A stretch of 63,414 bases of DNA, filler included, from Reclinomonas americana ATCC 50394 (lineage: Eukaryota): the NCBI GenBank assembly GCA_048213135.1. It is 8 parts of 4 records of this genome, joined end to end, with 100 filler letters (N's around TTAATTAATTAA, not from the genome) between each part and the next. Parts side by side here need not be neighbours in the genome. Positions count along the whole stretch, not along the records: positions 10,233 to 33,895 come from PS015714.1; positions 33,996 to 41,822 come from PS015714.1; positions 41,923 to 51,528 come from PS015714.1; positions 51,629 to 53,796 come from PS015714.1; positions 53,897 to 59,182 come from PS015715.1; positions 59,283 to 61,110 come from PS015715.1; positions 61,211 to 63,414 come from PS015716.1; 1 more part is not named here. One strand, 5' to 3'. The position numbers were made by a program, and so were the translations under genes. Position 1 is the first letter of the stretch; each line of letters begins with the position of its first letter. Below are positions 13,564 through 62,767 of this stretch, one piece after another. The notes below the pieces were generated by a model, which was not told the origin of the DNA, made no database searches, and saw nothing but the letters and a program-made list of their open reading frames with translations.

Positions 13564-16500
13564 ATGGCCGACGACGAACAGTCGCGGTTATCGCTGCGAG
13601 AGAAAGGCAGTGCTGCTGTTGCGTGAGAGAGAGAGCGAGAGAAAGAGAGGGAAAATGAGTTGTCTTGTGAGAAAGAGAGAGTTGGAGTTGTCTTTCTCTC
13701 TGCGTTGTTGTGCTGCTCGTTGGGGTGTTGTGAGGTGCGAAAGGGGCATTGTTGAGGCATTTGCAACTTGCAATCTCTCTCTCTCAATCATTGACTTGCC
13801 ATTCGCATTCTTCGCTCTTCCCTCTCTCTCTCACTCTCTCGCGCTCACTCTCTTTCTCTCTCTCTCTCTCACGCACATACACACACTCTCCCCCATCATC
13901 CCTCTGTGCAATCTCTCTCACGAGTCCTCACTGTGCAATCTCTCATTGTCTCTTGAGTTGTCTCTCTCTCATTCTCTCTGTGTGGGTTGCCGTCGCGTCC
14001 TCTCACTCGCTCTCTTTCTCTCTCACACACATTCTCTCTCTCTCTCTCTCCCATCATCTCTGTGCAATCTGTCTCACATGTCCTCGCTGTGCAATCTCTC
14101 ACTTGTCTCTCTCTCTCTCTGTGTAAGTGCGTTGCTGTGCGTTGTTGCTGCTCATTAGAGGCAGTGAGACGCGAAAGGCGTTGAGCTGATCATTCGTTTG
14201 CAGGTCAACCTCTCTCTCTCTCTCTCTCAGTCGCACAGCGCATCGACTTGTCCGTCGCATACTGCACTCTTCCCTCTCACTCACTCACACACTTTCTCTC
14301 CCCCCATCTTCTCTCTGTGCAAGCTTTCTCACACACCGTCACTGTACAGTCTCTATACGTCGATCTGCGCTCATTCTGTCACACTCTTTGCCTCTCGTCG
14401 TTTGCTGTGCTGCTGCTCGGTAGGGGTAGTGGGGCGTGAAAGGGGCAACGTCGAGGCCTTGCTGCTTGACACAATCACGTATCGTCAGCCGCACGTCGCT
14501 CTCACTCTCGCACTCTTTTCGTGTCAGTGAATCGCAAGGGCGCGTCGTCGAGGCGATCGTCGACCACTCACCTTCTCTGCCTTTCGGCTGCACGCCCTTG
14601 TCTTGCTGCCCCTCGCTCACTCACTCTGCTTCAGCTTGTCTTCTCCACCACCTCTCGCCGCTGCATTCTCTTCCATTTCCCTCCCTTTCCTCCCCTTCCT
14701 CCGCCTCCCTTTCCCTCCCACTTCCCTTCCCCTTCCACTCACCTCCCTTCCCCCTTCCCTCTCCACCTCCCTCCCCTTCCCGCCGCACAGTACCTGCGCT
14801 TCAAAAAGACCCGCGAAGCCGCCTCATCCACCGTCGTCTCCTCCTCCTCATCGACGACCACCATCACCACCACGACCACCACTGTCGCAGCCTCTTCCGC
14901 AGCAGCGAGCGATGCCGCCGCCGTTGTGGTCACCAACGATGTGAAGGTCGTGGAATCGTCGTCGTTGCAACAGAGCGAGAAGCGACTGTCGATGGACTAC
15001 TTGGAGGGGCCGAGCGTGCGCGAGCTGTTTGCGAGTCCGTCGCACCTGGCCAAGGCCAAGGATCACTACCAGAGCGAGCTGGAGAGGAGAGTTGCGTGCG
15101 ATGCGTGGCAGGAGGCGTGGAATTCTCTCCTTCGCCCTCTTGTCTTGCTCTTGGGCTTGGGAGGCAAGACCTCTCGATGTTGACATCTGCTGCTTTCTCC
15201 CTGACACAATGGGTTGAATCCCCGGTCTTCCCCCGTCTGCATCTGTCTCTCACCAGCTCACTAATTCAAATCGTACATGACGCGTTTCTTTATTGCTATG
15301 CTCTCGCACTTATGCGCTTTCCGTTGTGTGTTGTTCCGTCCACCTACCCTGATCCCTTCCCCGCATCCCCTCATCCCTTCCCCTCATATCTTCGCCTCAT
15401 TCCTTCGCCTCACCCCTTCGCCTCATCCCTTCATCCCTCATCTCCCTTTCCCCTCCTCTCGTCCTTTCCCCTTCTCCCTTCTCCTCACTCCCTGCTCCTT
15501 TTCTTCCCCCTCCTCCCTTTCCGATCCCTTCCCCCCATCCCTTCCACTATCCCCTTCCCCTCACCCCTTCGCCTCATCCCTTCGCCTCATCCCTTCCCCT
15601 CCTCCCTTCCCCTCCTCCCTTCCCCTCATCCCTTCCACTCATCCCTTCTCCCGTCCTTTCGTCTTCTCACTTCCTTCTCCTATTCTTCCCCCATCCCTTC
15701 CCTATCCCTTCCCCTCATCCCTTCCCCATCCCCCTCCCCTTTCTCCCTTCCCCTCATCCCTCATCTCCCTATCCCTTCCCCCCTTTCCTTCCCCTTCTTA
15801 CCCCTTTTCCTTCCCTATCCCTTCCCTATCCTTTCCCCCCATCCTTTCCCCATTTCCACCCTTCTCACCCCTTCCCCTTTCCTTTCCCTACATAGAGCTC
15901 CGCCCTCTCCCCCTCCCTCCTCGAAAGCCTGCGCAACGCCGTCAACATCCAAGACATCAACCTCGAAACCCACATTGACGAGCTCTGGCAATCCTACAAC
16001 CGCGGCGACGAATCCGCCCACCGCGAACTCATCTCTCTCCTGGTGTACCACACCAGCCTCCTCAAAATTCGCATGCGCCAGGTGCAAGAGAGCGAACTGG
16101 AGCTGTCCAAGCAGGACTGGGAGGACCATTTGGCTCTCGTCGTTGCGTCGACCACCACGAACCCATTTCTTCTCCTCTTTCTTCCTTTCTCAAATCCCCT
16201 TCTCCTTCCCTCCCCACAGTCCACGCTGGAGACTGAGAAACGGGAGCGCGACTTCCGCATCGGGCAGCTGGAGGAGGAGATTCGCCGCCTCAACGCCCTC
16301 CTGCGCGACCGCGAGAGCGCCATGAGCGCCGTGGAGGACCGCCAGACCGCTCTCCAGACGGAGTTGGACTCGGCCCGCGAATTCGTGACGCGCCTGCGTT
16401 CCGAGTCCACCACCAAGCAGTTGGAGATTGAGCTGTTAAAGCAGGAGCGTGAGTCGCTGTCGGCCTCGGTGGCCGACACGCAGCGCCGCCTGGTCGAGTC

Positions 16501-61210: not shown

Positions 61211-62767
61211 TCGTGCACGGAACTCGTCCCGTCTTGCGCGGAACTCTTCCTCTCGCTGTGTCGCAACAAAAAATCGCCGTGAATACCAACCATCGCCACC
61301 ACCACCACCACCGCCACCGCCGCCAGCACAGCACGCAACCTTTTGACGAGCCTCCGGTGTGTCCAGAGAGATCGTCGCTGGCGCCGGGCTGGGCGGCGCC
61401 GGAGTCGGCACCGGCATGTGCGAGTTGCCGACACCCAGAGAAAACGTGGCCCCATGCGCCCTCATGGTGACCTCGTGCTCCGGCGTCGGCACTGGCACGT
61501 AGTGACGCGCCGACGGCATCGGGACCACCGGCGACGCATATGTCGACGCCGCCGACGACGCCGCGGCCGTGGTTGAAAAGAGCGCCGACGGAGGCGGCAG
61601 CGTCAGAGAACCGGGAGCGTGTGCCAACTCACGGTTCGGCAACAGATCCAGCGGGTTCATCGACGGCATATACGGCGATCGCGATGGCGAGAAGCGCGAC
61701 GGTCGCGACGAACCGTGCTTGGGCTGCACGATATGGTTGGAACGAGCACGCAACGCAACAACAGTCTTCATCCCTGTCACTCACCGACAGCGGAGTGCCC
61801 CACTCCTTTGGCGACCCGGTGTTCCACGCCGTGGCGGCACCTGCAGCCGCCGCCGCGCCTCCACTCTGCGAACCAACAGCACTGCTATAGAAGGAGCCAG
61901 TGGCGGGCGCAGCAGAGGGCGTCGACATGAATCGCGATGACTGCTGCGCCGGTGGAGGGGGCGACATAAAGAGCGACGAGCCAGCGGCCGACGACGCGCC
62001 CATTGCCGCCGCCATGGGCGCTGGAGAGAAGGCCGACTGTGGCGCTGTTGGCATCATGTGCCGATGAAACTGCGATGTGGAAAAGGTGGCGGGTGGTGGG
62101 GGCGACGGAGAGCGCACAGTGAGCGCGCGCATGCGCGCAGTCGAGTTGATCGGTGATGCATACAGCGCATGCTGCTGGTCGTTGACAAAGCGGCGCTGGT
62201 TGTCGACCAGCGCGGAGATTTGCGAGAGGAGATCGCGAGTGCGTTCCATCTAATGCACACGAGGGAAAGGAGAGAGAGAGAGAGAGAGAGAGGCGGTGTA
62301 GTTTGGAAAGAAAAAAGTGTGCGAGTGTGCTGTGCGCGCGTGTGTGTATGTGGCAATGGTGGTGTGTGTCAAGGTGGTGTGTGTGAGGAGAGAGCGTGCG
62401 CAGAGTGTGAGGTGGACTCTGGGCCCTGAATTTCTTGCAACGGTCCGCTTCAGACACGTATAACAAAACGTGCATACAAACAACAATGCACCTCAGAAGA
62501 AGCGCGTGCGTGAAAGCGAGTTTCGCAAGAGTGCGTGTGCGTCTCCACAGCAAGTGCGAGTGAGAGAGAGAGAGAAAGCAGACAGGCAGAGAGGGAGGCA
62601 GTGATTGCTCACCGTAAGTCCACCAATAATCGCTCGCGCGCAGCAGAGGACAAACGATCGCCTGTCTCATGTTTCGCGCCGCGGCTGTCTCCCTGTGTCG
62701 CACTGTCTGTCGACGCTCCTCCACTTCTTCCTCAAGTCGCAGCAGCAGTTGCAATGCACTAGTGGTC
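61211..62767 (-). CDS. Partial Ser/Pro-rich protein with N-terminal coiled segment; 3' end lost in gap, 5' exons probably extend toward ~63250
   Basis: Exons ~62767-62657, 62249-61785, 61723-61340 and 61255-61211 join in phase 0. The end REEEFRARRDEFRAR is only weakly reminiscent of FAM161/TPX2 F(K/R)AR motifs. Confidence 0.6.

Follow-up and report, generated by a model that had tools for sequence, protein, structure and literature searches.

Non-canonical registers of pairing between U1 small nuclear RNA (snRNA) and the 5' splice site, or donor, are known in humans as rare exceptions that have been proven site by site. In the sections of Tan et al. 2016 (PMC4856993) on register frequency, the bulge +2/+3 and bulge +3 registers are predicted at 68 and 51 of 201,541 human donors, of which curation left 54 and 36, and all validated non-canonical registers together make up about 1.5% of donors. 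The bulge criterion stated there is a free-energy difference (ddG) of -1 kcal/mol or better relative to the canonical helix. Here, a 63.4-kb stretch of joined genome parts from Reclinomonas americana ATCC 50394 (the window) was analyzed for a second donor class, GTTGCGT and, rarely, GTTGCGC or GTTGAGT, which reads like a canonical GTGCGT or GTGAGT donor with one extra T and carries its G at +6. Judged from the DNA sequence, these words very probably do begin ordinary GT-AG introns in this genome, and commonly so, heading roughly 13-15 of about 65 predicted introns, or about one in five. In a narrow full-text search of the literature, the motif brought up only primers and unrelated hits, and no paper describing GTTGCGT donors, or a major donor class in a shifted register, in protists or elsewhere, came up.

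Donor sites fixed by homology in the kinase gene

Two donors of the class can be placed to the nucleotide in a ciliary kinase gene whose catalytic exons share 75-82% identity with homologues. The gene and its introns are listed below, with a slash marking exon junctions in peptide and codon strings and lengths given in nucleotides (nt).

36.2-40 kb, + strand: LF4/MOK-type ciliary kinase, assigned from Pfam/homology
36202..36451, + strand: kinase intron 1; GTTGCGT at 36202, claimed as its donor, probably unused
36471..37624, + strand: kinase intron 2; donor GTTGCGT, exact by homology, with a gap at 37116-37551 inside
37684..37754, + strand: kinase intron 3; 71 nt, canonical donor GTGCGT, homology SGRQ/TAIKCMK; comparator
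37776..37846, + strand: kinase intron 4; 71 nt, unusual donor GTTTCA, homology needs AIKCMK/SRFESIEQVN; comparator
37951..38011, + strand: kinase intron 5; 61 nt, donor GTTGCGC, exact by homology and chosen in every parse
38358..38951, + strand: kinase intron 6; donor GTATGT, homology RMDIW/GVGCVFFEI; comparator
39281..39348, + strand: kinase intron 7; 68 nt, donor GTTGCGT, directly after the kinase domain; forced-parse loss 0

At intron 2, the exon 36452-36470 (YRIVGK plus A) joined to AG GGC GAA reads YRIVGKKGEGTFSEVLKA, as in MNKYRILGKKGEGTF of the homologues P0003, P0004 and P0017. The joined sequence YRIVGKKGEGTF (YRIVGKK/GEGTF) therefore means that intron 2 begins at the G of GTTGCGT, 36471, and the alternative AG at 37626 breaks the frame. 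Across intron 5, EVL-TA/T-GAC CGC yields EVLYDRPTGRL, as in all homologues. The preliminary description of this DNA had argued that 37951 must be cut at its GT, and the argument holds, as a shift of 1 nt either way produces TAG or loses GT-AG. Cleavage precedes the first G wherever homology can tell. Removal of the introns keeps the conserved protein at 36471 and 37951 and, in the parses described below, the reading frame at the other supported members, all of which have GT...AG ends. Intron 7 contains five other frame-compatible GTs, none of them canonical, and a CTCAC 21 nt from its 3' end.

Two micro-exons of the kinase gene are required by homology, namely 37755-37775 (21 nt, TAIKCMK) and 36452-36470 (19 nt, YRIVGK plus A). 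The 21-nt micro-exon is followed by the odd donor GTTTCA at 37776.

Donor-blind prediction and motif enrichment

Donor use in the remaining genes was assessed with a Viterbi exon-intron parser that scores coding sequence with a three-periodic Markov model, introns by their composition and acceptors with a matrix. The blind parser, whose sole donor information is GT, was self-trained on four segments totalling 42 kb. Gene strand was taken from Pfam/homology (10300-33300 +, 33300-36150 -, 36150-41800 +, 41900-52600 -), and 52-63 kb was left out of all counts. Sites were considered supported when forcing them cost a score loss of at most 3.3, or when they were used once gene continuity was enforced.

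GTTGCG was the top donor 6-mer of the blind parse (8/65), followed by GTGCGT (6) and GTGAGT (4), and at five more GTTGCGT sites the parse placed the donor at a GT 3-15 nt off. Its background frequency is 42 among 2592 sense GTs, and its enrichment at blind-parse donors is significant (p = 1e-5). With gene continuity enforced it headed 7 of 71 donors, site 30682 now being chosen, and with a self-learned donor table 10 of 62. When sites were forced one at a time, 12 of the 23 sense GTTGCGT copies fitted the best parse versus 3 of 109 random sense GTs (Fisher p = 1.3e-8), and about 17-18 of 71 sense GTG[AC]GT sites did so; the heptamer is thus a better predictor of donors than the canonical hexamers are. 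A distinct second class with G at +6, as proposed in the preliminary description, is also supported by the comparison which that description had set as its own refutation test: the expectation from a single position-independent donor matrix is 0.28 GTTGCGT in the set of 62 predicted donors, which contains 8. The corresponding independent-column matrix on the donor-blind set gives 0.13 expected and 5 seen among 71 donors.

On both strands together GTTGCGT occurs 33 times versus 7.88 +/- 2.68 expected, with a maximum of 15, in 100 dinucleotide-preserving shuffles. Within the four segments of fixed gene strand, 23 copies are sense and 2 antisense (21306 and 24481; binomial p = 1.9e-5), and this 23:2 bias indicates that GTTGCGT is a signal of the transcribed strand. 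The motif was confirmed at 17/17 coordinates where such introns had been claimed, comprising 11 GTTGCGT and the GTTGCGC at 37951 on the + strand and 3 GTTGCGT and 2 GTTGAGT on the - strand. The earlier description of GTGCGT and GTGAGT as the ordinary donors of this DNA is only approximate: no canonical hexamers are more frequent (6 and 8 of 62 donors), but the remaining predicted donors are mixed and include GTGAGA, GTTCGT, GTATGT, GTACGT, GTGGAA, GTTTGT and GTTTCA.

A wider family, GTT[ATC]CG[TC], has 11 sense sites, of which the parse accommodates just three (30307, 43210 and 37106), too few to widen the class. The predicted donors 30307 (+ strand, GTTACGC) and 43210 (- strand, GTTTCGT) have the form GT + T + NCG(T/C) without G at -1 and may belong to a wider shifted class. 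The word GTGGAATT is common to the predicted donors 15117 and 22264 (both + strand), where it may point to one more minor type of donor or to a mistake of the parser.

Claimed and candidate class sites in the coiled-coil, NOXRED1-like and FANCD2 genes

The sites outside the kinase gene, together with their host genes and the score losses of the forced parse, are as follows.

~11-32 kb, + strand: long coiled-coil gene with a PACT domain, assigned from Pfam/homology
13618..14238, + strand: intron, donor GTTGCGT; 621 nt, loss 2.8; the informed parse uses it, the blind parse takes 13610
15091..15097, + strand: GTTGCGT claimed as a donor; loss 14.6; the parses take GTGGAA at 15117; unsupported
16142..16219, + strand: intron of the coiled-coil/PACT gene, donor GTTGCGT; 78 nt, loss 0.2; used by the informed parse
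23932..23992, + strand: intron, donor GTTGCGT; 61 nt, loss 0; in blind and informed parses; CTGAT 14 nt from the 3' end
26310..26383, + strand: intron, donor GTTGCGT; 74 nt, loss 0; in all parses
28668..28734, + strand: intron, donor GTTGCGT; 67 nt, loss 2.2
30682..30750, + strand: intron, donor GTTGCGT; 69 nt, acceptor CACAGAG; used with gene continuity enforced
31077..31151, + strand: intron, donor GTTGCGT; 75 nt, loss 0; in all parses
33.9-36.0 kb, - strand: NOXRED1-like oxidoreductase, assigned from Pfam/homology
35397..36014, - strand: perhaps intron 1 of the NOXRED1-like gene, with GTTGAGT at 36014 as donor; loss 2.5
42.4-52 kb, - strand: FANCD2, assigned from Pfam/homology
44328..44395, - strand: FANCD2 intron, donor GTTGCGT at 44395; 68 nt, loss 0; in all parses; CTCAC 16 nt from the 3' end
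47088..47150, - strand: candidate intron, donor GTTGCGT at 47150; 63 nt, loss 3.2; CTGAT branch motif; absent from the preliminary description
47234..47291, - strand: FANCD2 intron, donor GTTGAGT at 47291; 58 nt, loss 0; in all parses; CTAAC branch motif
49050..49119, - strand: FANCD2 intron, donor GTTTGT; 70 nt; tblastn and Pfam coordinates continuous across it; comparator
50854..50911, - strand: FANCD2 intron, donor GTGAGC; 58 nt; tblastn continuous at the same residue number, Pfam FancD2 226/228 flanking; comparator
51249..51952, - strand: FANCD2 intron, donor GTTGCGT at 51952; 704 nt, spanning a gap; loss 2.8; in the informed parse
61333..61339, - strand: GTTGCGT claimed as a donor; loss 26.6; unsupported; the gap 61111-61210 may hide an acceptor

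Thirteen of the 17 introns claimed in the preliminary description are supported, two exactly (36471 and 37951) and the others by the blind parser (13618, 16142, 23932, 26310, 28668, 30682, 31077, 39281, 44395, 47291 and 51952). As for the other four, 36202 is contradicted by the frame, 15091 and 61339 are unsupported, and 36014 is compatible with the parse but has rivals, the parses favouring 36019 (GTTTAG) or 36001. An in-frame stop between two coding stretches is bridged by the GTs 30640 and 30682 only, and the forced-parse loss of 30682 is 13.4 without the gene-continuity constraint. Donor 28668 is not fixed to the nucleotide, with overlapping rivals at 28673 and 28676 (GTTCGT) scoring 0 and -0.3, and the blind parse took a GT 3 nt upstream of 16142 and 51967 at 51952. 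Representatives of FANCD2 share 24-33% identity over about 150 residues, and are therefore too distant to test donors 44395, 47291 and 51952. The assignment of 47150 as a donor is tentative, as the parser breaks the gene model nearby.

The candidate introns with donors 47150 and 47291 share a weak 32-nt match (72%; 47099-47130 versus 47242-47273, spacing 143 nt), which may be an old local duplication.

Intron properties and splicing machinery

The introns of the class resemble their neighbours in everything but the donor. In length, 10 of 13 members fall within 58-78 nt, the same mode as the other introns, and their acceptor is CAG, as in neighbouring introns. A branch-like motif, CT[CGA]A[CT], lies 8-45 nt before the 3' end in 11/13 class introns and 43/52 other introns versus 89/547 random AGs. 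The shared length mode, branch motif and CAG acceptor indicate that the major spliceosome removes the class introns.

U12-type introns are defined by a rigid donor word complementary to U11 together with a branch site of the type TCCTTRAY. This identity was considered for the class and rejected, the branch motifs being CTCAC, CTCAT, CTGAT and CTAAC, as in the other introns, and the donor GTTGCGT.

Register of recognition and pairing with U1

The exon side distinguishes the class from other donors, with G at -1 in 0/16 class sites versus 32/48 other predicted donors (p = 2.5e-6). Exon ends score a log-likelihood of -43.2 under the shifted mapping (canonical -3/-2 columns) versus -61.2 under the unshifted one (-2/-1 columns). 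Since no member has G at -1, a whole-helix +1 shift fits better than a bulged U on a canonical helix. The UGCGU block, which starts at +2 in canonical GUGCGU donors, lies one nucleotide deeper in the class, and from this we infer that the snRNA helix marking the site is read in the +1 register. The +1G would then stand in for the -1G as the whole helix shifts, and the GU, through U6/U5, would still set the cut. Among predicted donors at 10300-52600, G at -1 is present in 9/9 GTGAGT and 3/7 GTGCGT sites, which may mean that donors of the CGT type rely less on pairing with the exon. C outnumbers A at +5 by 14:2 in the class versus 7 GTGCGT to 9 GTGAGT among canonical donors (p = 0.023).

Donors from -3 to +9 were folded with the standard U1 5' end as ViennaRNA duplexes, bulges being allowed. 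The 13 GUUGCG sites gave +0.5 to -2.0 kcal/mol in any register, versus means of -6.4 kcal/mol for other predicted donors and -2.2 kcal/mol for random sense GTs; GUGAGU gave -10.7 and GUGCGU -3.9 kcal/mol. By the bulge +2/+3 criterion, no stable GUUGCG helix with standard U1 was found in any register. For the two GUUGAGU sites, the predicted helix with standard U1 is shifted by +1 and has an energy of -5.2 and -6.8 kcal/mol (47291: -6.8), and this better-pairing word is the rare form (2 versus 14). GUUGCGU is predicted to bind standard U1 no better than a random GT, which points to recognition probably through a U1 5' end that pairs with C or through non-U1 factors. The second alternative of the preliminary description, a variant U1 or U6 snRNA, thereby becomes more likely.

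Such pairing with C could arise if the U1 5' end were altered, for example at position 5. In an exploratory comparison of 63 donors with 773 random GTs, U5G ranked first among the 27 variants made by changing one base of the U1 5' end, with an area under the curve (AUC) of 0.777 alone and 0.802 when combined with standard U1, versus 0.706 for standard U1 alone. A search of the window with Rfam at the gathering score gave no match. We put forward only tentatively, as a doubtful idea, that the U1 5' end has changed (e.g. at position 5) or has been duplicated as a second isoform and pairs with UGCGU. If true, GUUGCGU would be a fully complementary donor one base out of the usual register, and U1 would have co-evolved genome-wide with a new major donor class. 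The whole explanation, comprising real donors, a +1 register and non-standard recognition, appears to us evenly balanced between right and wrong, and its register-shift and recognition part taken by itself a shade less secure than that.

Several observations weigh against this explanation. On the exon side, phase 2 occurs in 5/10 class members, where -1 is a G-poor codon position, so that the -1G contrast is partly due to intron phase; measured against GTGCGT donors alone the contrast is 0/16 versus 3/7. The energies were computed with unmodified U instead of pseudouridine. The GC-rich alga Ostreococcus reportedly uses strict GTGCG(T/C) donors, so weak U1 pairing alone is no proof of an altered U1. 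As to the introns themselves, 5 of the 23 sense GTTGCGT copies lie deep inside exons (forced-parse loss at least 27), the parser errs at the nucleotide level and the intron calls beyond two junctions rest on it, and the blind parse missed the homology-backed donor 50911 and skipped the 21-nt kinase exon. Of the 8 short introns tested, 6 have a second GT in GTTGC/GT that is frame-compatible with another AG, and at 36202 the second GT (36207) keeps the frame. Sample sizes are small, and all of the data stem from a single window.

Alternative explanations

The rival that survives best is a second U1-like snRNA or U1 isoform complementary to GUUGCGU, with standard U1 serving GUGAGU-type donors, so that two snRNA populations would feed one catalytic spliceosome. 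The class is rich in information, with seven nearly fixed positions and the 14:2 ratio of C to A at +5, and it is not complementary to standard U1. The occurrence of -1G in 9/9 GTGAGT versus 3/7 GTGCGT donors hints at two recognition modes, and donors and random GTs were told apart best when the U5G variant was added to standard U1. That variant scan is, however, a post-hoc fit to 63 sites, and the 5' end of U1 varies very little among known eukaryotes, which also counts against such an isoform. All in all we regard it as unlikely, although the diplonemid S. specki, in the part of PMC12621601 dealing with its U1 genes, offers a precedent of U1 genes with differing 5' ends.

The preliminary description favoured another mechanism, in which standard U1 pairs with GU(U)GCGU as it does with GUGCGU, one U at +2 or +3 being bulged out. 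The motif is indeed GTGCGT plus one T, a T insertion at +3 is neutral for the messenger RNA (mRNA) and offers an easy evolutionary path, and the +2/+3 and +3 bulge registers have been experimentally accepted in human cells, as stated in the bulge sections of Tan et al. 2016 (PMC4856993). However, none of the 13 GUUGCG sites forms a stable helix in duplex folding, their energies of +0.5 to -2.0 kcal/mol being no better than those of random GTs. In a bulged helix the -1G should still pair with C9, yet it is found in 0/16 sites, and the better-pairing GTTGAGT is rare beside GTTGCG (2 versus 14). The human bulge registers, in the same sections, amount to 68 + 51 of 201,541 sites and not one in five. 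A bulge therefore looks distinctly improbable, more so than a second U1.

It is less probable still that most of the sites are not cleavage sites, the word being a neighbouring enhancer or protein-binding signal, cleavage falling on a nearby or second GT, or the gene models being wrong. The first kinase intron illustrates the idea. The ATG AAC at 36195 corresponds to the MN start of the homologues, and splicing from 36207 to the AG at 36450-36451 gives MNSC/YRIVGKK; this sole AG allows an in-frame join from the GT at 36207 only, and a cut at 36202 needs a non-AG 3' end. The donor claimed at 36202 is thus contradicted by the frame, and the second GT (GTAACA at 36207) fits instead. A second GT is frame-compatible in 6/8 short introns, and at 13618, 16142, 28668 and 51952, as well as at 36471 in a single run, the blind parser preferred a GT lying 3-15 nt off. 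The earlier statement that several of these donors are required by reading frame was too strong, as each of the 8 short introns tested holds 6 to 15 rival frame-compatible GTs, none of them canonical. Against this rival, highly conserved protein sequence fixes two sites to the first GT; 37951 has no second GT, and that of 39281 is not frame-compatible. The first GT also gives the better acceptor (CAG) and lengths within the 58-78 nt mode.

Finally, copies of an introner-like mobile element spread through genes, which one 7-mer at many intron starts in several genes might suggest, are an extremely improbable source of the shared heptamer and were rejected, since an alignment of 11 class introns is invariant just at the donor and the AG (mean column identity 42%), shows nothing common beyond the ends, and contains as its sole internal similarity the weak 32-nt match (72%) of two neighbouring FANCD2 introns.

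Genomic context of the window

The window has a G+C content of 55% and contains scaffold gaps. Seven gaps are built as 44 N, a 12-base all-frame stop linker and 44 N, and plain N runs of 122-926 bases also occur. Gaps lie inside several genes, and exons or acceptors may be hidden there. The gaps of the linker type are at the following positions.

10133-10232: gap, 44 N/linker/44 N
33896-33995: gap, 44 N/linker/44 N
41823-41922: gap, 44 N/linker/44 N
51529-51628: gap, 44 N/linker/44 N
53797-53896: gap, 44 N/linker/44 N
59183-59282: gap, 44 N/linker/44 N
61111-61210: gap, 44 N/linker/44 N

At 55452-58620 the coding score is 418 on the + strand versus 192 on the - strand, and a + strand gene without a Pfam match is probably present; the - strand GTTGCGT at 57387 would therefore be antisense. 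A Pfam search of 69 minus-strand open reading frames (ORFs) from 52-63 kb gave no usable match. The 800-aa coiled-coil ORF had no match in a word-index protein search and no relative in a metagenome scan, and the FANCD2 C-terminal ORF had no match in the word-index search. The kinase exon found 16 loci in the metagenome scan, at an identity of at most 75%, too distant for intron comparison.

On the - strand of 4840-6310, about 20 copies of GTTGAGC/GTTGAGT occur 21-105 nt apart. They form a tandem protein-coding repeat within a 1635-codon + strand ORF at 1975-6882. These copies are unrelated to splicing, and the raw GTTGAGT count is inflated by them.

Significance and comparison with known systems

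A genome whose commonest donor word is register-shifted would provide a natural system for studying how the cut site is fixed independently of U1 pairing. It would serve equally for the slack that U6/U5 allow between the GU and the paired block, and for the co-evolution of the U1 5' end with donors. Gene finders that rely on one matrix would miss about one-fifth of the introns of such a genome; a single matrix predicts 0.28 GTTGCGT where 8 are found.

Among described systems, U12-type introns are alike in placing a second sharply defined donor word beside a main class, and they are the pattern for the rival with a dedicated snRNA; they differ in having their own branch site and a different donor word, whereas here the class shares its branch motif, acceptor and length with the main class. 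The diplonemid S. specki is also a protist, in which, according to the part of PMC12621601 on U1, U1 genes differ in the end that pairs with the 5' splice site, a difference proposed to serve degenerate donors; that part describes no register shift, and GUUG/GTTG is absent from its text. Ostreococcus, as reported by Irimia & Roy 2008, shares GC-richness, short introns, a rigid GCG donor and a CTGAC-type branch motif with the window, but is reported to use a single register.

The human bulge registers are alike in that an additional U follows the GU of an otherwise canonical donor. They differ from the class here, which makes up about 20% of donors, shows no predicted energy gain, and lacks the -1G in place of favouring it. 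The class also resembles the human shifted (+1) register (Roca & Krainer 2009, as cited in PMC4856993), where the GU is cut, the helix lies one nucleotide deeper and the +1G replaces the -1G. An oligo in Table 2 of Tan et al. (PMC4856993) has the same layout, with exon CA, GU, an extra base and a consensus tail. The dominant GUUGCGU differs from that register in having C where U1 needs A, and a register that is rare in humans would here underlie the commonest single donor word.

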